64,000 nucleotides of DNA from Vulcanimicrobiota bacterium (GCA_963820825.1 CAWGBN010000009.1:261967-325966), one strand, 5' to 3'; counted from the first letter of the stretch, positions 76 through 22,888 are shown. A program made the numbers and translations. The notes: a model not told the origin generated them from the sequence alone.

Positions 76-1260
76 ATGAACGTCCGCAAGCTGTTTTTGG
101 GCGCCGGCACCGGACTCGCCGCGGGCTACGCGGCGCTGCGCGCGATGCAGGCAGTGCGCGAGTGGCAGCGGCCGTCGCCGGCGCGAACGCCCGACGCGGT
201 GGCGTACGGCGCGATCCGCCGGAGGCTCGAAGTCGCCGAGACGCTGCGGGGAACGATCGGTTTTCTCGCCTTCGCTTACGGTCCGCTCGCGCGAAGGCTC
301 GACAGCGTCACCCACGGCGTGCCGGCCTGGCTGCGGCCGGCACTCTTCTTCGCACCGCTCTCGCTCGTCTCGTCGGCCGCCGATCTTCCGATATCGTTCG
401 TTGCGGAGTACACGCTCGAGCGGCGCTTCGGTTTGAGCGAGCAGACGCGACGCGCGTGGCTGGGCGAGTACGCAAAGAGCGCGCTACTCGGTACGGCCTT
501 GAGCGCTTTCCTCGCGACGCTGCTCGGCGAGGCGCTCCGCCGGGCGCCGCGCCGTTGGCCGTGGCTCGCGAGCCTCGGCACGCTGCCGCTCCTCGTCGCG
601 GGCAACGTCATCGTACCGCTCTACGTGCTCCCGCTCTTCAACAAGTTCGAGCCGGTGACCGGCTCGCTCGAAGAGCGTCTGCGCAAGCTCGCCAAGCGAT
701 TCGGCGTCGGCGACGCGGATATCTTACGAATGGACATGAGCCGGCAGACGCGCAAGGCGAATGCCTTCGTGACCGGCATCGGACGAACGCATCGAATCGT
801 GCTCGGCGACACGCTCATCGCAGCCTTTCCCGAGAACGAGACCGAGTTCGTCGTGGCGCACGAGCTTGGCCACTACGTCAACAAGGACACGTGGCGCATC
901 ATCGCGCTCGGCGAGGTCCTGGCGGCGACGCTCTTCTTCCTCGCCAACGCCGGCGCGTCGAAGCAGGTGCGCGAGGAACTACGCGACCGGCCGCTGCTGG
1001 TCGCACGTATATACGCGATCATGCTCGTCGCCACGCAACTCTTTCGACCGCTGCTCTTCGCTTTCTCGCGTTCGCGCGAGTGGGCTGCCGACCGCTTCGC
1101 GATCGCCGCAACCCGCGACCCGGCGGCCGGCGCCTCCGCGTTCCGCCGGTTACGCGATCAGAATCTCGCCGACGAAGATCCGCCGGCCTGGTACGAGTTC
1201 TTCTTCGCTTCGCATCCGTCGCTGCGCGCGCGCATCGCCGCGCTGGACCGCTCGGGCTAG
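76..1260 (+). CDS. M48 family (Ste24/HtpX-like) membrane zinc metallopeptidase
   Basis: HELGH zinc motif, ANAFVTG, SREWAADRFA and C-terminal SHPSLRARI motifs; several hydrophobic segments. Confidence 0.9.
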   Translation: MNVRKLFLGAGTGLAAGYAALRAMQAVREWQRPSPARTPDAVAYGAIRRRLEVAETLRGTIGFLAFAYGPLARRLDSVTHGVPAWLRPALFFAPLSLVSSAADLPISFVAEYTLERRFGLSEQTRRAWLGEYAKSALLGTALSAFLATLLGEALRRAPRRWPWLASLGTLPLLVAGNVIVPLYVLPLFNKFEPVTGSLEERLRKLAKRFGVGDADILRMDMSRQTRKANAFVTGIGRTHRIVLGDTLIAAFPENETEFVVAHELGHYVNKDTWRIIALGEVLAATLFFLANAGASKQVREELRDRPLLVARIYAIMLVATQLFRPLLFAFSRSREWAADRFAIAATRDPAAGASAFRRLRDQNLADEDPPAWYEFFFASHPSLRARIAALDRSG

Positions 1261-2675
1261 GGTAAGACCGCCGAGGGGCGAGTGCCAAGCCAAGCGGCGA
1301 GATCGGTGCGATTCGCGGACGAGCCGTCGCGAAGCTCGGCGCGCAGCTCGCCGAAGAGCCCGAAGCCTTCGGCGAAGGCGTCGTGCTTGTGGATCGACTC
1401 CTCGTTCACTTGACTTGCGAAGACAAAGGTCTCGTCGCCCAGGTCGGCATACATGTCGAGCGCGCGCGCGAGTATCCCGCGAACGACGTCTTCGACGAAC
1501 CGCGGATTGTGATGGGCCTTGTTGACGACGAAAAACTCGTCGGGGCGCTTCAGGAGATCGTAGGTCTCGCTCGACATCGAGTTCTCGACGATCTCGACGA
1601 GATCTTCGGCACGAATCGCTTCCGAGTGCGCTTCGTCGAGACCTAACAGAATCGCCCCACGGCCGCGCTGGTTGTGCGTCGCCACCGGGAGCGCGTCGAG
1701 CGCGCGCGCGGCATCGGATTCGCTGAACCCCGCGTCGATCAGCTCGGCCAGCGCGTGTTCGCGCACCATCGCTTGCGCGCAGGGACAGGCCGTCATTCCT
1801 TCGGCTTCCACGCCGATCACGCGGCGCGTGCCGTACGCGTCGGCGTGCGCGACCCCGACCAGCGTATAGGTCTCCTCGCCGCGCTTGCCGCTCACGGGCG
1901 TCCATCGTTCCAATCCGAACTCGGCACGCAGTCGCACGTCGGCGCGCACGGCGCGATGACTGCGCACGACCTCGCAGGCGATCGCTTCGACGAGACGCTC
2001 GATTCGAGCGGGCCGCACGTCGCGCGCCAAAACGTCGAGCGCCGCTTCTTCCAAGATCTCGGCGAAGCGCGACATATGCACGCCCGATTTGTCGGCCGCC
2101 AGATCGGCGACCATGGTGAACTCGCCGTTGTAAACGCGCGCGCGTCCGTCCACTTCCAAGTGCACGACGCGGCGCACCCGCGAGACGCCCGCCCGATTGA
2201 GCGCGAGCCGAACCTCGGGCGCCTCGGATTGCCGGTCGGTATCGAAGCGCAGCCCGCGTTCGCGCCGCCGGACGCCGCCGTTGACCGGCGTCGTGACGAG
2301 ATGCGGCGCGATCTCCGCGAGCGGCGCGAGATTATAGGGACGCCCTTCGAGATGCGGCTGCACGACGGTGCCGTCGTAGACGAGCAAATCGAGGTCGATC
2401 GGTCGCGGCTCCAGCTTGGCGCTCGAGCGTGAACGGCCTACGGCGAGCTCGACGTCGCGCGCAAACCGCCTGAATGCTTCGAGATCGAGCTCGGAGCGCA
2501 GCGCTGCGGCCACGTTGAGATAGGCGGGCCCATCGGCGCCGCCGGCCGCGGGCGACTCGTAGAATGCCGAGACCGCGGAGATCTGGGCACGCGCGCGCAG
2601 GCGTTGGAGCGCGGCGAGGATATTGCCCTGCCGGTCGCCGAGGTTCGAGCCGATTCCGACATAAAGGTCGTGCAC
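1257..2675 (-). CDS. folK-folE2: Fusion of HPPK (FolK) and GTP cyclohydrolase I type B (FolE2/MptA)
   Basis: GTG start at 2675 (MHDLYVGIGSNLGDR, FolK N-terminus), PRPIDLDLL FolK motif; C-terminal GVHMSRF, GMTACPCAQ, ATHNQRG, LLKRPDE, NPRFVEDVVR and ESIHKHDA FolE2/MptA motifs in one open frame. Confidence 0.88.
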   Translation of the reverse strand: MHDLYVGIGSNLGDRQGNILAALQRLRARAQISAVSAFYESPAAGGADGPAYLNVAAALRSELDLEAFRRFARDVELAVGRSRSSAKLEPRPIDLDLLVYDGTVVQPHLEGRPYNLAPLAEIAPHLVTTPVNGGVRRRERGLRFDTDRQSEAPEVRLALNRAGVSRVRRVVHLEVDGRARVYNGEFTMVADLAADKSGVHMSRFAEILEEAALDVLARDVRPARIERLVEAIACEVVRSHRAVRADVRLRAEFGLERWTPVSGKRGEETYTLVGVAHADAYGTRRVIGVEAEGMTACPCAQAMVREHALAELIDAGFSESDAARALDALPVATHNQRGRGAILLGLDEAHSEAIRAEDLVEIVENSMSSETYDLLKRPDEFFVVNKAHHNPRFVEDVVRGILARALDMYADLGDETFVFASQVNEESIHKHDAFAEGFGLFGELRAELRDGSSANRTDLAAWLGTRPSAVLP

Positions 2676-2738
2676 CGGCTCAACCTTCGCGCCGTGCTGC
2701 CGGAATTCCGCACGAGCGCCGCGTATCGTAGGCGGCGA

Positions 2739-3800
2739 GTGGAACGCGATACGATCTATCCCTACGTCCTCGATCCGAAGCTCACGACGCAGGTGTGGGG
2801 AGGCGACGAATTGGTTCGCCTCTACGGCAAGCACGGCGATCCGCAAGCGCGGTTGGGCGAGTCGTGGGAGTGCTGGGATACCGATCGCGTCGTCAATGGG
2901 GCATTGGCCGGTTCGAGCGTGGCCGAGCTGCGATCGAAGCTGGCGCACGAATTTCTCGGCGATCTCGACCCCGCGAAGATCTTTCCGGTGCTCACGAAGA
3001 TCATCACCGCACACGATTGGCTCTCGGTTCAAGTCCATCCCGACGACGCGTACGCGCAGCGTGTCGAGCATCAACCATTCGGAAAGACGGAGTGCTGGTA
3101 CGTGCTCGACGCCCAACCGAACGCGGAGATCGTCTACGGGTGGACGCGCGACACCTCGCGTGCCGAATACGAACGGCGCGTCGCCGACGGCACGCTCGGC
3201 GAGATCCTCCGTCACGTCACGCTCAAGAAGGGCGATACCGTCTACATTCCGCACGGCATGGTGCACGCGATCGGACCGGGACTGACGGTATTCGAAACGC
3301 AGCAGGCATCCGATTTGACCTATCGCATGTTCGACTACAACCGCGTCGGCCTCGACGGGAAACCGCGCGAGCTCCACGTACGCAAGGCCGCGGACGTTCT
3401 CGATTACAGCGCCACCACGACCGGCACGCTCGCTCAGATCTCGTACCGGTTCGAAGGGCTCGAGCGAACCGCGCTCATCGCCGACCAGCACTTTGTCGTC
3501 GAGCGAATCGTCGCCGGCAGCGAGCCGGCCTCGATGGCGACGCAGGGTCGTCCGCTCATTCTGATGTCGCTCGACGCGCCGCTCGAGGTGACCGCCGGCG
3601 AAACGGTAGCGAAGCTGACTCCCTATCAGACCACGCTGATCCCCGCCGCGGCCAAATGGTGCACCGTCGCGGCCACCGCGGGAGACTCCGCGCCGTTTAT
3701 GTTCGTAACACCGCCGGAAGACGGCGAGCGGCTTGCGGCACGCCTGCTCGCCGCCGGGATCGCTCAATCCGCGATCGACGCCTTCATGGCGCAGTTTTGA
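2739..3800 (+). CDS. manA: Mannose-6-phosphate isomerase, type I
   Basis: VWGG, GESWE, LSVQVHPDD, KTECWY, HAIG and ETQQASDLTYR motifs; GTG start inferred at 2739. Confidence 0.9.
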   Translation: MERDTIYPYVLDPKLTTQVWGGDELVRLYGKHGDPQARLGESWECWDTDRVVNGALAGSSVAELRSKLAHEFLGDLDPAKIFPVLTKIITAHDWLSVQVHPDDAYAQRVEHQPFGKTECWYVLDAQPNAEIVYGWTRDTSRAEYERRVADGTLGEILRHVTLKKGDTVYIPHGMVHAIGPGLTVFETQQASDLTYRMFDYNRVGLDGKPRELHVRKAADVLDYSATTTGTLAQISYRFEGLERTALIADQHFVVERIVAGSEPASMATQGRPLILMSLDAPLEVTAGETVAKLTPYQTTLIPAAAKWCTVAATAGDSAPFMFVTPPEDGERLAARLLAAGIAQSAIDAFMAQF

Positions 3801-4804: not shown

Positions 4805-5572
4805 TTGCGCATTCTCATCACCAACGACGACGGAATCGATTCGCCGGGAATCCACGCGCTCGTCGACGCGCTAGTCGCCGATCACGCGTTGATCGTCGTC
4901 GCGCCGTCGGGAAACCGCAGCGGCGTCTCCCACGCGATCACTGCCGATGAGGCGATCACGATCGAGCGCCGGCACGACGCCTCCGTTCCATCATATGCAT
5001 GCTCCGGAACGCCGGCCGACTGTGTCTTTCTCGGTTCGACCGAGCTCGCGTCGCGTTCTGAGCTGGTCGTCAGCGGAATCAACCATGGGCCGAACCTTGC
5101 CGATGACGTCAACTACTCCGGAACCGTCGCCGGCGCCGTGGAGGCGTCGCTCCTGGGCATTCCCGCGCTCGCGGTCTCACTCGCGTCGAATCACGAAGAC
5201 CCGGCCGGCCGCCGCTACTGGGAGAGCGCCGCGGAGATCGTGCGGCGTTGCGTCGAAACGGCCTACGCGAACCTGCGCGACGGAGCTTCTTACTGGAACC
5301 TGAACGTTCCGAATCTGCCGCTCGATTCGATTGCCGGCATCGCCGTGACGCGGCTCGGGCGCAAACGGATCTGCGGGCGGATCGTCGGCCAAGAACACGA
5401 CGGGGCGATTCGTTACTATCGTGCTTGGGAGTCGCCGTTCGAGACGGATCGCGAAACGCTCGGCACCGATATCGGCGCCGTACACGCCGGCTATGCCAGC
5501 TTGACGCCGCTCTTGCTCGATCGCACCGCGGAGTCGGGACTCGACGCCTTGCCGGCGCTGACCATGCGGTAG
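4805..5572 (+). CDS. surE: 5'/3'-nucleotidase SurE
   Basis: ILITNDDGI, GTPADCV and VVSGINHGPN...YSGTV motifs. Confidence 0.93.
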   Translation: MRILITNDDGIDSPGIHALVDALVADHALIVVAPSGNRSGVSHAITADEAITIERRHDASVPSYACSGTPADCVFLGSTELASRSELVVSGINHGPNLADDVNYSGTVAGAVEASLLGIPALAVSLASNHEDPAGRRYWESAAEIVRRCVETAYANLRDGASYWNLNVPNLPLDSIAGIAVTRLGRKRICGRIVGQEHDGAIRYYRAWESPFETDRETLGTDIGAVHAGYASLTPLLLDRTAESGLDALPALTMR

Positions 5573-6420
5573 CGCTTGGGCAATCGCCGGCCCGCGATCT
5601 CGGCGACGGGTCCCAACCGATGCATAAGCTGTTCGAACTCCGCGCAGTTGAGCGACTGCGCTCCATCCGATAGCGCGTTTGCCGGATCCGGATGCACCTC
5701 GATCAAGAGTCCGTGCGCGCCCGCCGCGATGCTCGCAACCGCGATCGACGGAACCAGGCGCGCGATTCCGACGGCGTGCGACGGGTCGACGACCACCGGA
5801 AGATGGGTCATCTCTTCGAGCAACGGAACCACCGAGATGTCGAGAACGTTGCGCGTCGCCACGTCGAACGAGCGCACGCCGCGCTCGCAGAGCACGACGC
5901 CGTCGTTGCCTCCGAGCAGGATATATTCGGCGGCCAGCAGCCACTCTTGAACCGTCGCCGATAATCCGCGTTTGAGAAGCACCGGGGTGCGCGCGGCGCC
6001 AACCTCACGCAAGAGCGGAAAGTTCTGCATGTTGCGCGCGCCGATTTGGAGCATATCGGCGTAGCCCATCACCATCTCGACGTCGCGCGGATCCAGGACC
6101 TCGGTCACGACGCCCAACCCGTACCGGTCTCCCGCGTCGCGCAGCAGCTTGAGCGCCTCTTCGCCGAGGCCTTGAAACGAGTACGGCGAGGTACGCGGCT
6201 TGAATGCGCCGCCGCGCAGCACGTTTGCGCCGGCTGCGGCGACGGCACGCGCGGCGGCTTCGAGTTGCTCGGCCGATTCGACGCCGCACGGACCCGCGCA
6301 GATCGCAACCTCGTCGCCGCCAAACGTCGCACCGTTGCGAAGCCGCACGACCGTCCGCTCGGCCCGTGCGTCGCGACGGACCAGCCGATACGATTGCGGC
6401 ACGTTGACGCCTCGCTCCAT
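5491..6420 (-). CDS. aroF: DAHP synthase type I-beta, lacking N-terminal regulatory domain
   Basis: AGPCGVES, RGGAFKPRTSPYSFQG, QIGARNMQNF, LLKRG, DPSH and EVHPDP..SDG motifs; start ATG 6420 inferred. Confidence 0.92.
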   Translation of the reverse strand: MERGVNVPQSYRLVRRDARAERTVVRLRNGATFGGDEVAICAGPCGVESAEQLEAAARAVAAAGANVLRGGAFKPRTSPYSFQGLGEEALKLLRDAGDRYGLGVVTEVLDPRDVEMVMGYADMLQIGARNMQNFPLLREVGAARTPVLLKRGLSATVQEWLLAAEYILLGGNDGVVLCERGVRSFDVATRNVLDISVVPLLEEMTHLPVVVDPSHAVGIARLVPSIAVASIAAGAHGLLIEVHPDPANALSDGAQSLNCAEFEQLMHRLGPVAEIAGRRLPKRYRMVSAGKASSPDSAVRSSKSGVKLA

Positions 6421-6493
6421 GCGGCCCGCTTCGACGCCTCGCAAGGGCTTCATCCTGCTGCTCGCGGCAGGCCGCAAGCGTGGCGCTGCATGA

Positions 6494-7715
6494 ATGAGAA
6501 TGCCAATGGAGCACGTGGCCGTTACGGGGCTGGGGATCGTTTCGCCGATCGGCAGCACCACCGAATCGTTTTGGCGCCATTTGCTCGCAGGAAGGCTCGC
6601 GATCGCTCCGATGGGCGGCCGCGAGCGTCTCACGGGCAACGGCTTCTGGGCCGCCGTGGGCGACGACTTTCTTCACGCGAGCGCGCTGCCGCGCGCCGCG
6701 TTGCGCAACACCGACCGTTTCACGCAGTACGCGATGGTCGCAACGCACGAGGCGCTCGCGCAGGCGGCACTCGATCTGCCGGCCGATTCGACGGCGGTGA
6801 TTCTGGGCAACACGATGGGCGGCTTTCCGTTCGTCGCCGAATCGCAGACGCGGTTTCTGGACGCGGCGCGCAACGTCACGCCGAAACTCATGGCCCTGGT
6901 CATCCCGAACATGGCGAGCGCGCGCATCGCGATGCATTGGGGAGTTCACGGCCCGCAGCTCGCAATCAGCACCGGCCTGCGCCTCGTCGCTCGATGCGAT
7001 CGGCCTCGCAGCGGGAATGATCGAACGCGGCGAGATCGAGGCGGCGATCGCCGGCGGGAGCGAGACGCTGCTCAGCCCGCTCGTTTACGAGAGCCTCGTC
7101 CGCGCCGGCGCGCTTTCGCGCAATCCCGACCCCACCGGCGCCTCGCGCCCGTTCGACGTCGATCGCGACGGTTTCGTGATGGGAGACGGAGCCGGTATCG
7201 TGATTCTCGAGCGCAGCGAACGCGCGCGAGCGCGTGGCGCCGCGATCCTCGCCCGAGTTCGGGGATATGGTTCGCGCGCGGATGCTTACCACATCACCTC
7301 ACCCGAACCGTCGGCTCGCTACGAGGTGCGCGCGATGCGCGACGCGATCGAAACCGCCGGCGACGCCGGCGCGGCCTGCCGCGTCGTCTACGCGCACGCC
7401 ACCGGCACGATCGTCGGCGACGCCGCCGAATCGAAGGCGATCGATGCCGTCTACGCCCAGCAGCCCGCGATCGTGACCTCGATCAAGGGGCACCTCGGAC
7501 ATAGCATGGCGAGCGCCGGCGTGATGTGCGCGATCGCCGGCATCAAGGGGATGCACGAAGGCTGGATTCCACCGACGCTGGGAACGCAACGCGTCGATTC
7601 GAAGACGCGCTTCGATCTCGTGCTGCGGGAGCCGCGTGCGGAATCGTACTCCGCCTTTCAAGTCAACGCGTTCGGATTCGGCGGACAGAACGCGTCGCTG
7701 ATTCTCTCGCGATGA
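6494..7715 (+). CDS. Beta-ketoacyl synthase (FabF-like), one +1 frameshift near 6974
   Basis: VAVTGLGIVSPIG, DRFTQYA and IPNMA; removing one G at about 6974 restores STACASSLDAIG; SRPFDVDRDGFVMGDG, HATGT, KGHLGH and NAFGFGGQN motifs. Confidence 0.88.
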
Positions 7716-7782: not shown

Positions 7783-10700
7783 ATGAATCTTTTCGTGAAA
7801 GGCACGAGCGGGCCGTTGACCGGTGAGGTGCTGGTCCCGAACTCAAAATATCACGCGCACCGCGCGTTGATCCTGGCCTCGCTCGCGCCGGGAACGAGCC
7901 GGATACTCGGCCTCTCCGACGCTCGACACGTGCAGTACACGATGGACGTACTGCGCGCGCTCGGCACGAAGATCGAGGTCGACCAAGATACCTTGCTCGT
8001 CACCGGCGGTCGCTACCACGTCAAGCGCAAGGTCGTCTCCGTCGGCAGTTCCGGCTCGACCCTCTACTTTATGATCGGATTGGCCGCGCTCGCCGACGCG
8101 CCGATCACCTTGACGGCACAGAAGTACTTCCGCCGCCGTCCCGTCGGGCCGCTGTTGGAAGCGTTGGCGGCGATGGGCGTGCGATTCGAGTCGGCAGACG
8201 GCTGTCCGCCGATCGCGGTTCAGCCCGGAGACCGCGCGGCGGCACGATCGTCATCCCGGGGATGCTCTCGCAGTGGATCTCCGGCCTGCTGCTGCTCGCG
8301 CCGTTTGCGACGGAGCCGACCGTCATCGAAGTCGAAGGCGAGCTCAACGAGCGCCCGTACATCGCGCTCACCATCGCGATGATGCGCACCTTCGACTTGC
8401 AGGTGCGCATGGCGCCGAATTGGCGCCGGTTCGAGATCGAACCGGGACAGCAGGCACGGCCGGCGACCGTCGAGCTTCCGCCCGACATCGGCTCGGCCGC
8501 GTTCGGCCTCGCCGTCACCGCGATCCATCCGTCGAACGTGCTCTTTCGCGGCTTGCACCAGCTCCCCGGAGAGCTGCCCGACCATCCCGAGGGCGCGTTC
8601 ATGGAGATCGTTGCCGAGATGGGCTTGCCGATGAGCTACGATGCGCACGAGAAGGCCGTACGCGTGAAGCACGACGGCATCGAGCTTCGCGGTATGCGCG
8701 TCGATTGCCGCGACATTCCCGACATGCTTCCGATTCTCTCGACCCTCGGCACCTTTGCAAAGGGGGAGACCGTCCTGGAGAACATCGCGCACGTCCGGCT
8801 CAAGGAATCCGATCGCGTCGCCGCGATGCTGCAGCTCAATCTCATGGGCGGAGATCTCGAGCTGCACGACGACCGGCTCGTCGCACGCGGCGTTTCGAAA
8901 CTCTTCGGAGCGCGGCTCTCCTCCTTCAACGATCATCGAATTGCTGATGTCACTGGCGGTGGCCGCGTCGCGCGCCGAAGGATCGAGCACGCTCACCTAT
9001 CCCAACGCATACCGCATCTCCTATCCGCGCTTTCTCGAAGCGATGCGCAGCATCGGCGTGCCGATGTCGATCGCCAAGGTCCCCGCGAGCGGAGAGGTCA
9101 CCGCACCGAAGGCGGCCCGGCCGATGCTCAAACCCGATCGCGCGGCCGAGATGACGCTCGACGAGCTGCTTCGCCGCCTCGCGCGCGAGCGGCCGCTCGA
9201 ACTCGCGGTCGTCGAGACGCGCGACGAAACCGATGCGGCGCTGACCTGGCAAGAGCTGCTCGATCGCGTCGAACGCACCGCGATGTTTCTGTTCGATCTC
9301 GGCGTGCGTCCGGGCGAGTGCGTCGCTTATCAGCTCCCCAACTGCATCGAGTTCGTCGTGATCTCGCTGGCTGCGCTGCGGATCGGCGCGATCTGCTGTC
9401 CGCTGATGCCGATCTTCCGCGAGCGCGAGATGGCCTTCTGCCTGCGCCGTTCCGGGGCGCGCGTTCTCGTCGTGCCCGACGAGGCGCGCGGCCGCCATCC
9501 CGCCGGCGAGATTGCGTCGCTGTTGAGCGAGGCTTCGATCTTCAGCGGCGCGCTTCCATTGCGCCTCGAGCACGTCATCGTCTCGGCGAGCGGGCGCCGC
9601 GCCCATCCGTTACCGGCGGCCGATAATGCGAACGGCAGCGTGAACTGGATTCGTCTCGAAGATGCGCTCAAAACCGTCAGCGTGGATGCGCAAGCGCTCG
9701 ACGCGCGGCGCGTCAAACCGGCCGCGCTCGCGCAGCTCCTCTTCACCTCGGGAACCTCGGGCGAACCGAAAGGCGTTCTCCATCGCAACGACGTGCTGAT
9801 GCGCGCCGCCGCAATGGAGGTCGAGCACCTCGGGCTCAACGCGGAGGACCGCGTCTTCGTCCCCTCCCCGCTCGCCCATCAGACCGGTTTTCTCTACGGC
9901 ATGTGGCTGGCGATCGTCATGGGCGTCCCCCAGATCGTGCAACCGATTTGGAACGCGCCTCGCGCGTTGCGCGCGCTCAACGATTGGGACGGAACGTTCG
10001 TTCAGGCGGCGACGCCGTTCTTGGCCGATATGGTAAAGGCCGTCGAGGATGGCGCGCTGCCGCCCGCGGCCCTGCGGATATTCGTCGCGACGGGCGCGGC
10101 GGTGCCGCGCGGACTCGCCGAGCGCGCGACGCGCATTCTCGGCACCGCCGTCTGCGGCGCGTGGGGAACGACCGAATCGTGCCTCGGCTCGCTCTCGGCG
10201 CCGGGCGATGAGGCCGCAAAGGTCTGGGGGACCGACGGCCGCGCGCTGCGCGGAATTCGTTTGCGCATCACCGATTCCGAGGGCCGCATCTTATCGCCGG
10301 GCGCGGAAGGACACTTCGAGATCTTCTCGCCGACGATGTTCGAGGGTTACGCCGATCACCCCGAGTGGACGGCGGCAGCCTATACGCCCGACGGGTGGTT
10401 TCGCACCGGCGATCTCGGCGCGATCGACGAATCGGGATACATCCGCATCACCGGCCGCGTTCGCGACGTGATCAATCGCGGCGGCGAGAAGATTCCCGTC
10501 GCCGAGGTCGAGCAGCTCCTGAGCGACCATCCGGCAGTCGCGCAAATCGCAATCGTTGCGATGCCCGATCCGCGCTTAGGCGAGCGCGCCTGCGCGTTCG
10601 TCGTCTTGCGGCGCGGTGCGACGCTCGATTTTGACCGGATGCAGCATTATCTCGACGCCTGTCAAGTCGCCAAGCAGTACTGGCCCGAGCGGCTCGAAAT

Positions 10701-10809
10701 CGTCGGCGAACTCCCGAGAACGCCCTCGGGGAAGGTGCAGAAGTACGTACTGCGCGAGCGCGCCCGTGAGATGCGGCCGCACGAGCGCGTGAAGGAAGCG
10801 ATATCGTGA
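7783..10809 (+). CDS. EPSP-synthase-like domain fused to acyl-CoA ligase (PlmJK/AsuB1/AnsJ+AnsK-like), two compensating frameshifts near 8230 and 8940
   Basis: AroA-fold motifs PNSKYHAHRAL, RRPVGPL, SQWISGLL, RLKESDR and NDHR; AMP-binding motifs FTSGTSGEPKG, WGTTE, WFRTGD and LPRTPSGKVQK; first and last segments share a frame (1009 codons in total). Confidence 0.85.
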
Positions 10810-11978
10810 AGCAACTCGACCGCGCAGCGTTCGACGAGGCCGCGTTTGCCGCATTGAAGGAGGAGATCGCGGCATACGTTGCCGGTCCCGGCGAAACGTG
10901 GGCCGCCCGCATCGAGCGCGAGCGCCGCGTGCCGCCGGAGCTCTGGGAAGACCTGCGTGCGCGTGGATATCTCTCGCTCGCCGCGCCCGAAGCCTATAGA
11001 GGGCGCGGCATTCCCTTCACCCGCTTTCTCGAGCTGATCGAGCTCTTTTCGATGTCGCACGCGTCGATCCGAATGATCGTCCACGTCGTCAACGGCACGT
11101 GGCGAGCGATGGACCGATTCGCGACGCAGGAGCAGCGCCGACAATTCGTAGTTCCCTCGGTTCAAGGCGCGGTGAAGATCGCATTTACGCTCACCGAACC
11201 GACCGCCGGGACCGGCGCCGACCTTCGCTGCAGCGTCGTGCGCGAAGGTGATACCTATTACCTGAGCGGCGAGAAACACCTCATCACCTTCGGAACCATC
11301 TGCGATTACTGGCTGCTCTTCGCGCGGCTCGCCGGTACGCGCGGCGCCGAGGGAACCGTCGCGCTCCTCGTCGACCGGAACTCGCCCGGTGCGACAGTCG
11401 TCGAGATGGACGAATCGATGGGCGTGCGCGGAACCGACCACGCCCGCTTGCATTTCGACCGCACGCCGGTTCCCGTTGCCAATCGCCTCGGCGACGAAGG
11501 CGAAGGGTTGGCAATTGCGCTCGGCGGATTTCTGACGCCCAGCCGCATCTCCGTCGCGATGAGCTGCGTCGGTTTGGCGCGGCGCGCGCACGAGCTTGCG
11601 GTGGCCTATGCCGGCAAGCGCGAGACCTTCGGCAAGAAGCTCGAAGCGCGGCAAGCGATTCGATTCATGATCGCCGAGAATGCGACCGATATCGAGGCGG
11701 CGCGCCAACTCGTGTTACACGCCGCGCGCCAATGGGAGAGCGGAACTCCCGACGCGCCGATGCTCTCCTCGATGTCGAAGCTTCAAGCCGTCGACATGCT
11801 CACCCGCGTCACCGACAAGGCGCTGCAGATTCACGGCGGCATCGGCTTCTGGCAGCCCAACGCCATCGAGCGCGTCTATCGCGACGCGCGGGCGCAACGC
11901 TTCGAAGAGGGCACGAACGAAATCCAAAAGACCGTCATCGCGCGAGCGCTTCTCGGAAGCGCGGGAGGCGGAGCATGA
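10806..11978 (+). CDS. Acyl-CoA dehydrogenase (AnsL/PlmL/AsuB2-like)
   Basis: [28 protein letters not shown] and QIHGGIG...[11 protein letters not shown] motifs; GTGA overlap with the upstream gene. Confidence 0.9.
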
Positions 11979-12781
11979 GCCGCCGGTTCGAGAACAAGGT
12001 CTCGCTCATCACCGGCAGTTCGCGCGGGATCGGCCGGGCGCTCGCCTTGACGCTTGCGCGCGAGGGCGCCTCGGTCGTCGTTAACTACGTGCGCAACGCC
12101 GATCTCGCGGCACAAACCGTCCGCGATATCGAGGCGCTCGGCACGCGGGCAATCGCCGTGCAGGCGAATATGGAGACGGTCGAGGAGATCGATCTGCTCT
12201 TCGACGCGGTCGAAGCGGAGTTCGGCCGGCTCGATCATTTCGTCTCGAACGCCGCGGCCAGTTCGTTCAAGAAGATCCTCGACCTCAAAGCGAACAATCT
12301 CGATCGCTCGTTCGATCTGAACGTTCGCGCCTTCGTCCTCGGCGCGCAGAGGGCCGTCAAGCTGATGAAGGACGGCGGACGCATCGCCGTACTTTCGAGC
12401 TATGGAAGCATTCGCGCCTATCCCACCTATGCGAATCTCGGCTCGAACAAGGCGGCGGTCGAAGCATTCGTGCGGTACATGGCCGTCGAGTTCGCGCCGC
12501 GCGGCATCAACGTCAACGCGATCAACGGCGGGCTTATCGACACCGAATCCTGCGCCTACTTCTACGAGCGGGTTGCGGGGATGGCACCGATCGAGTCGGT
12601 GCTCTCCAAGGTCCCCAAAGGGCGCATGGGCACGACGCAAGAGGTCGCCGACACGATCGCGTTCCTGCTCGCTCCCGAGTCGGAGTACATCACCGGTCAG
12701 ACGATCTGCGTCGACGGCGGCTTGAGCGTTATCGCGCCGCCGTTTTACTCCGATACCTCGCCGCCCCTCTCGCTGACGTAG
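11975..12781 (+). CDS. SDR enoyl-thioester reductase (ChcA/FabL-like, candidate 1-cyclohexenylcarbonyl-CoA reductase)
   Basis: ATG at 11975 (MSRRFENK), [12 protein letters not shown] and the Y-x6-K (YANLGSNK) enoyl-reductase-type motif. Confidence 0.85.
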
Positions 12782-12789
12782 CCGCGCTG

Positions 12790-14808
12790 GTGTTCGAACA
12801 CGCGCTCGCGGCGGGTTCGATCGGCTCGCTGCGACTTCGCAATCGCATCGTGATGGGCTCGATGCATTTGGGCATCGAGCGAGACGGCGCGGCGCTGGCC
12901 GCCTTTTACGCCGAGCGCGCGCGAGGCGGCGCGGGCTTGATCGTCACCGGCGGCTCGTCGGTCAGCCGGGTCGGCGCAGGCGGGCGCAACTACAGCTTCA
13001 TCAACGATCCGCAGAGCGCCGCCCCGCTGCGCCAAGCCGTAACGGCCGTGCACGAAGCGGACGGGCGAATTGCGTTGCAGCTCTTTCATGCCGGCCGTTA
13101 CGCGCTCTACGCATCGTTCGGATTGCAGCCGGTCGCGCCGTCGGCGATTCCATCGCGCTTCTCCCCCGATCCGCCGCACGCGCTGAGCGACGAAGAGATT
13201 CACGAAACGATCGGCGATTTTGCGCGCGGGGCGGCGCGCGCGCGCGAGCTCGGCTTTGACGCGGTTGAAGTGATGGCTTCCGAGGGCTATCTCCTCAACG
13301 AGTTTCTCTCGCCGCTCACCAACCGCCGCGACGACGCCTGGGGCGGCGACTTGCAACGGCGCATGCGCCTGCCGCGCGAGGTCTTAGCCGCGATCCGCGC
13401 GAGCGCCGGCGCCGATCTTCCCGTCATCTTCCGAATCTCCGGTGCCGACCTAATGCCCGACTCGACGAGCCCGGGCGAGACGCTCGATTTTGCGCGCGCG
13501 CTCGCCGCGGACGGCGTCGACGCGCTCAACGTCGGCATCGGCTGGCACGAGTCGGCCATTCCTACCGTCCAGCATCTCGTCCCCAGCGGCGTCTGGGTCC
13601 GGTACGCGGCTGCAGTCAAAGCTGCCGTCGGCAGCGTTCCGGTGATCGCCAGCAATCGCATCAACTCGCTCGCCGCCGCGCAAGCCGTACTCGCCGCGGG
13701 GAGCGTCGACTTCGTCTCGATGGCGCGTCCGTTTCTCGCCGACGCGCAGATCGTTGCCAAGGCGGCGCGCAACGAATCGCAGCTCGTCGACACGTGCATC
13801 GCCTGCAATCAGGCATGCATCGATCTCTCGCTGCTCGATGCGCCGGTCTCGTGCATGGTCAATCCTCGCGCCGGCCGCGAACTCGAGTTCCCCGAACCCG
13901 GCAGCGCGCCGGAGCGGCCGCGCCGGTTTGCCGTGATCGGCGGCGGGCCGGCCGGAATGGAGAGCGCGCGCGCCCTCGCCGCGCTCGGGCATCGCGTCGA
14001 ACTCTTTGAAGCGCAAGGCGAGCTCGGCGGCCAGTTTCGAATGGCACGGCGCATCCCCGGCAAGCGTGACTTCGGCGAGACGATTCGTTACTTCACCAAC
14101 GAACTCGCTCGACTCGGCGTGGTGGTGCATTTCGATTGCCGGCTTCGCGACGCGAGCGCACTGCGCGCGTTCGATGCCGTTGTCCTCGCGTCGGGAGTGC
14201 TGCCGCGGCGAGTCGCGCTTGAAGGAAGCACGCTTCCGCACGTCGTTTCGTATGCCGACGTCCTATCGAACGGTTGCGCGGTCGGCGAACGCGTTGCCAT
14301 CGTCGGCGCGGGCGGAATCGGCGCCGACGTCGCGCATTTCTTGAGTTTCGGAGAGGTAAACGTCGACGAGACGACGCGCTTCCTTTACGAACAGGGATTG
14401 GCGGCGCCGGCGGACGGCGCGCTGCTGGTGACCGGACGCAAGCGCGTTGCGCTGATGCGCCGCGGACCGACCATCGGTGAAGGCATCGGCAAAACGACGC
14501 GCTGGGCCGTCGTCCGCGCGTTACGCGCCGCGGGAGTCGAGGCGCTGCCGAACGTCGCGTACGAAGCGATCGTTCCGGGCGGCATTCGCGTGCGAGCCGC
14601 CGACGGTTCGTCGCGAACGATTCCCGCGGATACGGTCGTGATCGCGGCGGGTCAGGAACGAAACGACGCGCTGCTCGAACCAATCCGCGCGCTCGGGGTT
14701 CCGTATCGCGTCGTCGGCGGCGCGCGAGAGGCGATCGAACTCAACGCCGTGCGCGCATTCGAAGAGGGTCTGCGCGCCGCGTACGAGCTCGCACGCTTCG
14801 TCTCCTAA
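12790..14808 (+). CDS. fadH: NADPH-dependent 2,4-dienoyl-CoA reductase (FadH/AnsM/PlmM-like)
   Basis: NRIVMGSMH, SEGYLLNEF, GIGWHE, CIACNQAC...CMVNP 4Fe-4S motif, GGGPAG and GKTT. Confidence 0.92.
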   Translation: MFEHALAAGSIGSLRLRNRIVMGSMHLGIERDGAALAAFYAERARGGAGLIVTGGSSVSRVGAGGRNYSFINDPQSAAPLRQAVTAVHEADGRIALQLFHAGRYALYASFGLQPVAPSAIPSRFSPDPPHALSDEEIHETIGDFARGAARARELGFDAVEVMASEGYLLNEFLSPLTNRRDDAWGGDLQRRMRLPREVLAAIRASAGADLPVIFRISGADLMPDSTSPGETLDFARALAADGVDALNVGIGWHESAIPTVQHLVPSGVWVRYAAAVKAAVGSVPVIASNRINSLAAAQAVLAAGSVDFVSMARPFLADAQIVAKAARNESQLVDTCIACNQACIDLSLLDAPVSCMVNPRAGRELEFPEPGSAPERPRRFAVIGGGPAGMESARALAALGHRVELFEAQGELGGQFRMARRIPGKRDFGETIRYFTNELARLGVVVHFDCRLRDASALRAFDAVVLASGVLPRRVALEGSTLPHVVSYADVLSNGCAVGERVAIVGAGGIGADVAHFLSFGEVNVDETTRFLYEQGLAAPADGALLVTGRKRVALMRRGPTIGEGIGKTTRWAVVRALRAAGVEALPNVAYEAIVPGGIRVRAADGSSRTIPADTVVIAAGQERNDALLEPIRALGVPYRVVGGAREAIELNAVRAFEEGLRAAYELARFVS

Positions 14809-20967: not shown

Positions 20968-21612
20968 TTGGGGATCGCGCGAGTCGCACTTTCGGTCGCG
21001 CCCTCGGCGCGCCGGTCGAACGGCGTCGCACGAGTCTCGCTCGACGTATTGATCGTCGCGGCGCTCCTGGCGCTCTTCTCGATTACGTTCCTCACCCGGA
21101 CCTTCTACATTCCATCGGTATCGATGGTTCCGACCCTGCAGATCGGCGACGTGCTGCTCGTCGACGAAATCGGCTACCGGTTTGCGTCACCGGGGGAGGG
21201 CGAGATCGCCGTCTTCACCCCGCCGTTCAAGCCACGGGACGGCGATTTCGTCAAGCGAGTCATCGGAACTCCCGGTGAGGCGATTGCAATTTCGAATGGG
21301 GTCGTCTACCGGAACGGATCGGCGCTCCGCGAGCCGTACGAGAACCAGACGCCCTCGTACGATCTCGCCATCCGCAAGTACGGCATCTACGTCAACGGCA
21401 GCCCGCTCGACCCGCACGTCGCGAACGTTCCGGCGCCCGGGCTCTGGCAAGCTCCGGACCGCATTCCGAAAGGGTTTTACTTCGTGCTCGGTGACAATCG
21501 GAACTACTCCGACGACTCGCACGTCTGGGGATTCGTTCCGCGCACGGCTTTTGTCGGCCGAGCCTTCCTGATTCTGTGGCCGCTCAAACGGCTGCGCGCT
21601 TTGGAGAGATAA
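20968..21612 (+). CDS. lepB: Signal peptidase I (paralogue 1; true start uncertain, homology extends to 20932)
   Basis: IPSVSMVPTL (Ser), FVKRVIG (Lys) and GDNRNYSDDS. Confidence 0.88.
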   Translation: MGIARVALSVAPSARRSNGVARVSLDVLIVAALLALFSITFLTRTFYIPSVSMVPTLQIGDVLLVDEIGYRFASPGEGEIAVFTPPFKPRDGDFVKRVIGTPGEAIAISNGVVYRNGSALREPYENQTPSYDLAIRKYGIYVNGSPLDPHVANVPAPGLWQAPDRIPKGFYFVLGDNRNYSDDSHVWGFVPRTAFVGRAFLILWPLKRLRALER

Positions 21613-21619
21613 GAGGCGA

Positions 21620-22354
21620 GTGACTCCTTACGAGCTTCTGGCAATCGTCGCCGTCATCGCCGTTGCGCGCGTGATTCTCTCGCTTCGCCCGGTCGTTGCC
21701 GGCTCGTCCGGACGCAGCACCGCGATCGCCCGCGAGTTTCTCGACCCCTTCATCATAGCCGGAATCGCGGCGTGGGTTCTCATCACGTTCGTCGCTCGCA
21801 CCTACTACATTCCCTCAGGTTCGATGCTGCCGACGCTGCAGATCCACGACGTCCTTCTCGTGGACAAGTTCGAGTACCGATTTCATCCTCCGCACGAGGG
21901 CGACATCGTCGTCTTCCCCCCGCCGGTTCCTACGCCCGACGACTTCATCAAGCGCGTTATCGGCCGTCCGGGTGACACGATGCGCATCGCCGGCGGCACC
22001 GTCTATCTCAACGGACGCGCGTTGGCCGAACCCTACGTCGCCGAGCGGCCCGCGTATAACCTCGAGATACGCAACTACGGGATCTACATCAGCTATGGTG
22101 CCGGTTGGCAGCGCCTCGACTCTATTGACGGCAACGTTCCGCCCGCGACGAAGTGGAGCGCGCCGGATCGAATTCCCCCGCACTGCTACATCATGCTGGG
22201 CGACAATCGCAACGATTCCGAGGACTCACACATCTGGGGCTTTGCGCAGGATTCCGGACGCTTCGCCAGCGGTCCGCGCTCCGGCGCGGGTGCCGGGTTC
22301 ACCGGCCGTGCGTTTCTCATCTTCTGGCCGCCGTCTCAAGCCAAGATTCTGTAG
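21620..22354 (+). CDS. lepB: Signal peptidase I (paralogue 2)
   Basis: IPSGSMLPTL, FIKRVIG and GDNRNDSEDS. Confidence 0.92.
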   Translation: MTPYELLAIVAVIAVARVILSLRPVVAGSSGRSTAIAREFLDPFIIAGIAAWVLITFVARTYYIPSGSMLPTLQIHDVLLVDKFEYRFHPPHEGDIVVFPPPVPTPDDFIKRVIGRPGDTMRIAGGTVYLNGRALAEPYVAERPAYNLEIRNYGIYISYGAGWQRLDSIDGNVPPATKWSAPDRIPPHCYIMLGDNRNDSEDSHIWGFAQDSGRFASGPRSGAGAGFTGRAFLIFWPPSQAKIL

Positions 22355-22378
22355 CGAGCGAAGCGAAGTCGGAGCAAC

Positions 22379-22888
22379 GTGGTCCGCTTCGTCCGCTGGC
22401 GACCGGTTGCGAACCTCGCCCTGCAGCTCGCGGTGCTCGCGGCGATCATCGCGGCTTTCTTCGTCCGACTGCCCCAAGTCTCAGGACTCTCGATGGAGCC
22501 GCATATCCGCTCCGGCGAATACGTGATGATCAATACCTTCGCATATCGGGTCGGTAGCCCGCGGCGCGGCGACATCGTCGCATTTCGGCACGAAGGTGAC
22601 GAACGCGCGATCTTCATTAAGCGCGTCATCGGCGCTCCCGGCGATCGTATTCGCATCGATCGCGGCCTCATCTACCTCAACGGAGCCAAACTCGACGAGC
22701 CGTACGTGCAGCACCCGGACGCCCGGTCGTTCGGCGAGATCGTGGTTCCTCCGGCCTCCGTCTACGTCTTGGGCGACAACCGTGCAGAGAGCGAAGACTC
22801 TCGCTTCTTCGGACCCGTCGGAGATGGATTGCTCGTCGGGCGCGCGATCGCCGGCATCTGGCCGCCGCGAATGCTGGGCGGATTGTGA
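22379..22888 (+). CDS. lepB: Signal peptidase I (paralogue 3, short SipS-like)
   Basis: VSGLSMEP, FIKRVIG and GDNRAESEDSRFFG. Confidence 0.9.
   Translation: MVRFVRWRPVANLALQLAVLAAIIAAFFVRLPQVSGLSMEPHIRSGEYVMINTFAYRVGSPRRGDIVAFRHEGDERAIFIKRVIGAPGDRIRIDRGLIYLNGAKLDEPYVQHPDARSFGEIVVPPASVYVLGDNRAESEDSRFFGPVGDGLLVGRAIAGIWPPRMLGGL

Follow-up and report, generated by a model that had tools for sequence, protein, structure and literature searches.

The window, by which we mean the whole 64,000-nucleotide stretch of Vulcanimicrobiota DNA analysed here (from the genome designated G000 below), contains an operon that opens with a FabF-like ketosynthase (KS) gene and continues with a gene for a two-domain protein, in which an EPSP-synthase-fold (AroA-like) domain precedes an acyl-CoA ligase (Table 1). 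Further along the operon are genes for an acyl-CoA dehydrogenase (ACAD) homologue, an SDR and a flavin oxidoreductase (OYE). At some distance from the operon the window also holds an 836-aa open reading frame with HPPK and FolE2 domains, whose N-terminal stretch of about 360 aa has no Pfam match and which is conserved in relatives, as well as a tandem array of signal peptidase genes.

Table 1. Features of the window, with positions counted from its first nucleotide.
Feature	Position	Strand	Evidence
HPPK (FolK) + FolE2 GTP cyclohydrolase domains, one ORF	1257..3767	-	
DAHP synthase, divergently transcribed	5491..6450	-	Pfam/NCBIfam
FabF-like ketosynthase, first gene of the operon	6494..7715	+	PF00109/PF02801; NCBIfam fabF below cut-off
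EPSP-synthase-fold (AroA-like) N-terminal domain, PlmJK-type fusion	7783..9066	+	Pfam PF00275; identities
Linker and C-terminal acyl-CoA ligase (AMP-binding), same protein	9067..10809	+	PF00501/PF13193
Acyl-CoA dehydrogenase homologue (PlmL position), candidate FAD-dependent dehydratase	10806..11978	+	Pfam
SDR enoyl-CoA reductase (ChcA position)	11975..12781	+	Pfam adh_short_C2
NADH:flavin oxidoreductase, 2,4-dienoyl-CoA-reductase type (PlmM position)	12790..14808	+	PF00724 + PF07992
Three signal peptidase I (S26) genes in tandem	20968..22888	+	

In the window copy the AroA-like domain is spread over three reading frames, with breaks near 8229 and 8941; PF00275 matches the first two pieces and the AMP-binding family matches the third. 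Comparison with two relatives indicates the loss of a base near 8229 and the gain of one near 8941, and the upstream ketosynthase gene carries an additional base near 6975. In the two relatives that we translated, the fusion is a single uninterrupted ORF of 1,006-1,007 aa, and a strong match to the window domain was present in 36/36 sampled relatives of the genus, mostly inside an open frame of at least about 1,000 aa. The intact ORF of the relatives, together with the AMP-binding match, bears out the claim of an earlier note on this DNA that the domain is fused to a CoA ligase. The two frameshifts within the fusion are probably assembly errors, this being the likeliest cause given that 13 of 126 other G000 orthologues also change frame (0.11 per kb, though some of the 13 may be adjacent genes). 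No RNA run was listed as holding the sequence, and a single DNA run, with a small share, reached neither frameshift. It is improbable that the window copy is instead a recent pseudogene, a matter separate from that of its chemistry: the operon does carry three frameshifts in 8.3 kb where about 0.9 would be expected from the G000 background, and partial loss of the cassette is known in three genomes of the genus (see below), but the copy has no in-frame stops, its motifs are all intact, its 87% identity to intact relatives is normal, and unrelated orthologues of the same genome shift frame as well.

For comparison with E. coli K-12 AroA, the window protein was read through with X at the two breaks. 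All of the residues that the earlier note had listed as kept are present in this alignment (K22, R27, Q171, D313, K340, E341, R344 and D384-H385-R386), as are G96, R124 and Y200, and all of the listed departures could be seen: SKS to SKY, GNAGTAMR to GSSGSTLY, SSQ to LSQ, SKPY to ERPY, N336 to H and K411 to I. The change to LSQ amounts to the loss of a single serine; S170 is retained in HMMER and richer MAFFT alignments, and the E. coli alignment used for the residue list places a gap at 170. In E. coli AroA these residues contact S3P and PEP, and S23, R100, S169 and S197 serve in S3P binding and closure. The fold assignment also held: an AlphaFold2 model of the domain from an intact relative (pLDDT 91.4) had EPSP synthases as its best structural matches, with TM scores of about 0.87-0.88. 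The domain thus shares with canonical AroA its fold (TM about 0.88) and a core consisting of K22, R27, R124, Q171, D313, K340, E341, R344, H385 and R386, but it differs in S23Y, R100Y, S169L and S197E, in its fusion to a CoA ligase, and in being only 29% identical to E. coli AroA and 27-30% identical to the canonical AroA of its genus relatives, with which the window-type domain coexists. At 315 bits against a cut-off of 287, the domain nevertheless passes the NCBIfam model for aroA, and PlmJK, a Streptomyces homologue, does so too. In databases PlmJK-type domains are annotated as EPSP synthase, which can mislead pathway reconstructions and predictions of glyphosate sensitivity.

Homologue searches returned 862 and 820 proteins of the AroA-ligase architecture. 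Among the best 120 of each, the closest named matches carry the label Ca. Cybelea or Eremiobacterota, next come Actinobacteria at 65-69% identity, and none of the named matches is from Alicyclobacillus. A cluster look-up identified three of the homologues as PlmJK (AAQ84158.1, Streptomyces sp. HK803, phoslactomycin), AsuB1 (ADI58632.1, S. nodosus subsp. asukaensis, asukamycin) and MycA4 (AFG19409.1, S. flaveolus, ansatrienin/mycotrienin), each of which has the same two-domain architecture as the window protein. The AroA domain of the window copy is 64% identical to those of AsuB1 and MycA4 and 61% identical to that of PlmJK, and the ligase domains are 60-62% identical. All four proteins have Y23, S94, Y100, L169, E197, H336 and I411, and the three Streptomyces proteins match the window at its listed departures except for S/T at 97, R/Q at 198 and P/T at 199. 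The ligase also behaves like that of PlmJK in having TIGR03208 (AliA, a catabolic cyclohexanecarboxylate-CoA ligase) as its best NCBIfam match at 466 bits, with PlmJK scoring 460 bits against the same model, both below its cut-off of 792. Since PlmJK, AsuB1 and MycA4 carry the same substitutions, the "rewired" active site is the signature of a published family rather than a local oddity. This kinship supports the idea that the domain has been repurposed; the protein family and its pathway are already published, and the gene itself is ordinary.

The genes that follow the fusion extend this correspondence. Relative to the genes at the same places in actinobacterial loci, the ACAD homologue is 65-76% identical (a stretch of 12 residues recurs in 6 of 8 loci tested), the SDR, whose best NCBIfam match is FabL-like and below cut-off, is 59-69% identical, and the OYE is 49-58% identical. 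The order KS-fusion-ACAD-SDR-OYE was found in 13 of 14 loci of relatives, the 14th being cut by the end of its contig. By gene type, these four genes from the fusion onwards match plmJK-plmL-chcA-plmM, which a table in PMC5852498 gives as the CHC-CoA genes; passages in two other papers name asuB1-B4 as the asukamycin counterpart (PMC12720273) and state that MycA1-A4 make CHC from shikimate (PMC13304725). Within 10 kb of the fusion at 16 loci labelled Actinobacteria we found the ACAD at 15, the SDR at 14, the OYE at 13 and a FabF-like KS at 6. Homology and synteny together leave very little doubt that the window domain is the N-terminal domain of a PlmJK/AsuB1/MycA4 orthologue, encoded by the first gene of a cassette leading from the shikimate pathway to CHC-CoA. 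Our literature search, which subscription journals mostly fell outside, yielded no account of what the AroA-like half of PlmJK-type proteins does and no text tying CHC-CoA to Eremiobacterota.

The window cassette differs from its Streptomyces counterparts in several respects. Its host belongs to a Vulcanimicrobiota (Eremiobacterota) genus in which close homologues are labelled Ca. Cybelea; it has no modular PKS nearby and is near-core in that genus; and it is preceded by a FabF-like KS and by the DAHP synthase gene. The latter adjoins the cassette in 12/12 genus loci, and three near-complete genomes of the genus yielded no other PF00793 gene. As for ketosynthases, G000 has two strong loci, a separate housekeeping FabF on contig C6 and the operon KS, so no modular PKS is seen. 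We consider it probable that the cassette, with a FabF-like ketosynthase of its own, primes omega-cyclohexyl fatty acids. This proposed end use would be shared with the omega-cyclohexyl fatty acid pathway of Alicyclobacillus; a passage in PMC10562698 links these lipids in Alicyclobacillus to acid and heat resistance. Vulcanimicrobium, a cultured member of the phylum, has iso-branched fatty acids according to a passage in PMC9758169, so branched CoA primers are in use in the phylum. A near-core cassette in one soil genus in turn predicts a lipid biomarker. A FabF-like KS accompanies the cassette in Vulcanimicrobiota and at 6 of the 16 actinobacterial loci (L121, L122, L123, L125, L128 and L133), and these KS proteins are only 28-40% alike, which suggests repeated recruitment for priming or elongating cyclohexyl chains.

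In a survey of 401 genomes of the phylum, the domain was present in 77 of 79 genus genomes (G000 itself being left out of this count) vs 3 of 321 other genomes, and the cassette is near-core in the genus. A set of 61 genomes used in the counts included two class-level relatives without the fusion, G048 and G059, neither of which carries a claim by itself. Within the genus, the fusion domain is mostly 80-90% identical between genomes vs mostly 61-76% for canonical aroA. In a FastTree phylogeny of the domain, the Vulcanimicrobiota sequences, together with unnamed ones, make up one group (support 0.83) that lies next to an actinobacterial clade and outside Streptomyces, and we therefore do not claim a Streptomyces donor. 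A plasmid search returned only distant AroA matches, of about 33% identity or less. Partial loss of the cassette is seen in G126, G199 and G213, within one sub-branch of the genus. The G126 locus (L120:8784-13299) has the KS, a stand-alone AroA-like domain and the OYE, and is without ligase, ACAD and SDR; in this genome, which is 96% complete, the domain has all of its motifs and no orthologue of the ligase or the ACAD was found, a state that fits either an independent activity of the domain or decay of the cassette. The G199 locus (L117:9053-15974) has the fusion, SDR and OYE with no KS, and no ACAD orthologue was found in that genome; in G213 the AroA-like domain was not found.

The earlier note had held that the domain is not a working EPSP synthase. 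Of 90 other genus genomes, 84 carry a canonical class II aroA as a gene of its own, as do 59/59 of those of high quality, and aroC and aroK occur alongside it. In G000 itself no canonical aroA was found among the contigs, but this genome is only 85% complete and hence is no instance of a complete genome without one. It also lacks orthologues of the four genes on one side of the relatives' aroA (HU, SRPBCC, M20 peptidase and MMPL): the best matches are 34-39% identical or there are none, vs 67-86% identity among relatives, and the joint absence of aroA and these four neighbours points to an assembly gap. A PF00275 match on contig C6 of G000 was considered as a second aroA and rejected, since by our reading of its motifs it is MurA and it scores far below the aroA cut-off. 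The comparative evidence is strong, and we hold with high confidence that the domain is not the housekeeping EPSP synthase. It appears very improbable that it is a second aroA, encoding a functional though divergent EPSP synthase. Such a role would suit its score above the aroA cut-off, its retained catalytic core and its standing as the only AroA-like gene found in G000; yet that last point is weakened by the likely assembly gap, canonical aroA coexists with it in every high-quality genus genome, none of S23, R100, S169 and S197 is retained, and PlmJK scores above that cut-off too.

Which of the substitutions are diagnostic was judged against a control set drawn from the best 150 of the AroA-like representatives at 50% identity; removal of 20 that fell short of 395 aa left 130, of which 92 have S197 and are assumed to be working EPSP synthases and 38 have E197. 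Position 336 is H in 51 of the 92 S197-type sequences and N in only 12, and K is absent at position 411 in 32 of them; in canonical aroA from relatives, position 411 is V in 10/10. N336H and the loss of K411 are thus frequent in S197-type AroA and neither change is diagnostic. This part of the earlier note's argument is not supported as it stood: the PEP site is largely intact. The remaining positions behave differently: S197 travels with R100 (92/92) and S169 (90/92), S23 being present in 84/92, and E197 travels with the loss of R100 and S169, which persist in only 9/38 and 6/38 of the E197-type. Judged by these alignments, what truly marks the family is the set S23Y, R100Y, S169L and S197E, together with a PEP/enolpyruvyl site that hardly varies.

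The same pattern is seen across the fusions. Among 144 fusion proteins (dereplicated from 355 to below 85% identity), the equivalents of R124, G96, Q171, D313, K340, E341, R344, H385 and R386 are held by 144/144 and those of K22 and R27 by 143/144, and the substitutions are just as fixed, with L169 and E197 in 144/144 and Y23 in 143/144. The AroA domain is about as conserved as the ligase, with a mean identity of 0.61 vs 0.59 and near-invariant columns numbering 80 of 427 vs 84 of 545. By the E. coli contacts, then, the 3-phosphate pocket would be remodelled (S169L and S197E, with S170 and K340 kept) and the enolpyruvyl site intact. One member of the fusion clade, P0302, has lost the K22, D313, K340 and Q171 equivalents; it is apparently a degenerate copy and offers a natural control.

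The earlier note favoured a dehydratase or eliminase, which in its most general form would take one of the hydroxyls off the ring, whether of shikimate, of shikimoyl-CoA or of an intermediate further on, with D313, E341 and K22 as acid-base groups. We found no direct support for this label. In its favour, three hydroxyls have to be removed along a pathway for which the cassette provides just four genes, the acid-base residues do not vary, and the fixed Glu in the former 3-phosphate pocket could engage the 3-OH. A dehydratase would, however, leave the fixed PEP site unexplained (the R124, R344, R386, G96 and H385 equivalents, 144/144), and the title of Skyrud et al. 2020 gives the dehydration to an FAD-dependent enzyme, whereas the EPSP-synthase fold is cofactor-free. 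We infer that the dehydratase of that title corresponds to the neighbouring ACAD homologue. This weakens the proposal, which we regard as rather unlikely. Nor do we think it likely that the domain is catalytically silent, binding shikimate (or PEP or chorismate) in order either to channel this ligand into the ligase or to gate the latter against the demand for aromatic amino acids. Silence would fit the loss of R100 and S23, which are nearly invariant in the S197-type, and the fact that in the homologues listed the domain is almost always fused to a ligase; set against it are the catalytic pair D313/E341, fixed in 144/144 fusions, and the G126 domain, which keeps all its motifs with ligase and ACAD orthologues unfound, though that copy may be a relic of decay.

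An intact enolpyruvyl site next to a pocket unfit for the 3-phosphate suggests a phosphate-free substrate that bears an enolpyruvyl group, and the residue pattern would fit enolpyruvyl chemistry on such a ring better than it fits a dehydratase. The explanation we lean towards, at somewhat less than even chances, is that the domain is still an enzyme with enolpyruvyl-ether chemistry that acts on a ring without the 3-phosphate. In the version we tentatively favour, it would bind chorismate, which is EPSP after loss of the 3-phosphate, and remove the enolpyruvyl group, either hydrolytically, yielding pyruvate, or by handing it back to phosphate. The product would be trans-3,4-dihydroxycyclohexa-1,5-diene-1-carboxylate; the fused ligase would trap this dienediol as its CoA ester, leaving the remaining dehydrations and reductions to the flavoprotein of ACAD type, the SDR and the reductase of OYE type. 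The difficult step at the start, a 1,4-elimination, would fall to the cell's own chorismate synthase. In the other version, a distinctly unlikely one, the reaction would run forwards, with PEP donating its enolpyruvyl group to shikimate that lacks the phosphate or to a CoA intermediate.

Several observations bear on the chorismate-cleaving version. The dienediol has been put forward as the initial CHC intermediate, and it is also what chorismatases (FkbO/RapK) provide on the way to FK506 and rapamycin. Chorismatases of the FkbO/RapK/Hyg5 type are proposed here as an analogy in function only, making the dienediol from chorismate for a cyclohexane-type starter, and they belong to another family than the AroA-like domain; the FkbO/Hyg5-type family (PF21168) was not found in 5/5 genus genomes searched, and by Pfam the window protein has no PF21168 domain. 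The catalytic and PEP-side residues are fixed in 143-144 of 144 fusions, and section 2.6 of PMC7144000 describes hydrolysis of EPSP to S3P and pyruvate by E. coli EPSPS, with Glu341 as acid/base. Against the enolpyruvyl explanation, K340 and S170 of the phosphate pocket are still present, and S23Y and R100Y may just as well have knocked out closure or turnover. In addition, Skyrud et al. 2020 name the ligase in their title as a promiscuous shikimoyl-CoA synthetase, which gives free shikimate a way in that bypasses chorismate. Were turnover of chorismate or PEP to prove true, the entry point to CHC-CoA would have to be revised for ansatrienin, phoslactomycin and asukamycin, and the fold that is the target of glyphosate would gain a new reaction; were it cleavage of chorismate, CHC-CoA would branch from chorismate and not only from shikimate.

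Stand-alone proteins with Y23 and E197, labelled Anaerolineaceae and Deltaproteobacteria, form a sister group to the fusion clade (support 1.0). Their genes were recovered from nine metagenome loci (L139-L147), eight of which were annotated and one, L145, listed. A chorismate-synthase homologue lies one or two genes away at L141, L142 and L147, and a shikimate dehydrogenase lies beside the gene at L139 and L140; an NMT1-type ABC binding protein adjoins it in four loci, and three have no pathway neighbours. The three chorismate-synthase homologues read GESYG where the other 46 of the 49 recovered read GESHG, a count that comes from three related loci and from a pattern admitting only H or Y. 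We take the histidine of GESHG to be chorismate synthase His17. A passage in a review places this conserved residue near the phosphate of EPSP. No shikimate kinase was found among the ORFs scanned in the stand-alone clusters (L141:218-2835, L142:6316-9299, L147:1522-3854, L139 and L140:5857-12878), which also contain citrate-synthase-like, DinB and NMT1-type ABC genes, and at L140 a type II dehydroquinase. These loci lend the proposed mechanism indirect support, since they tie the Y23/E197 signature to enolpyruvyl-shikimate chemistry with an altered 3-position, although the direction there may be synthetic; the clusters possibly encode a parallel pathway that handles a shikimate analogue, or else a route that needs no kinase. 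It is conceivable, though on balance doubtful, that the AroA domain of PlmJK-type proteins is a chorismate-cleaving enzyme and one branch of a wider, so far unrecognised set of E197 homologues working on rings without a 3-phosphate, some of them with GESYG partners.

A second E197 clade, of about 21 representatives, stands apart from the PlmJK clade and often reads SKSHTIR. Its members include P0424, P0428, P0327, P0416, P0349, P0326, P0417, P0330 and P0431, with Clostridium, Sphaerochaeta and Mesotoga among the names attached to the clade. One of them, P0431, is fused to a shikimate-kinase-like domain (a match below cut-off), so that E197 by itself may go with a phosphorylated substrate.
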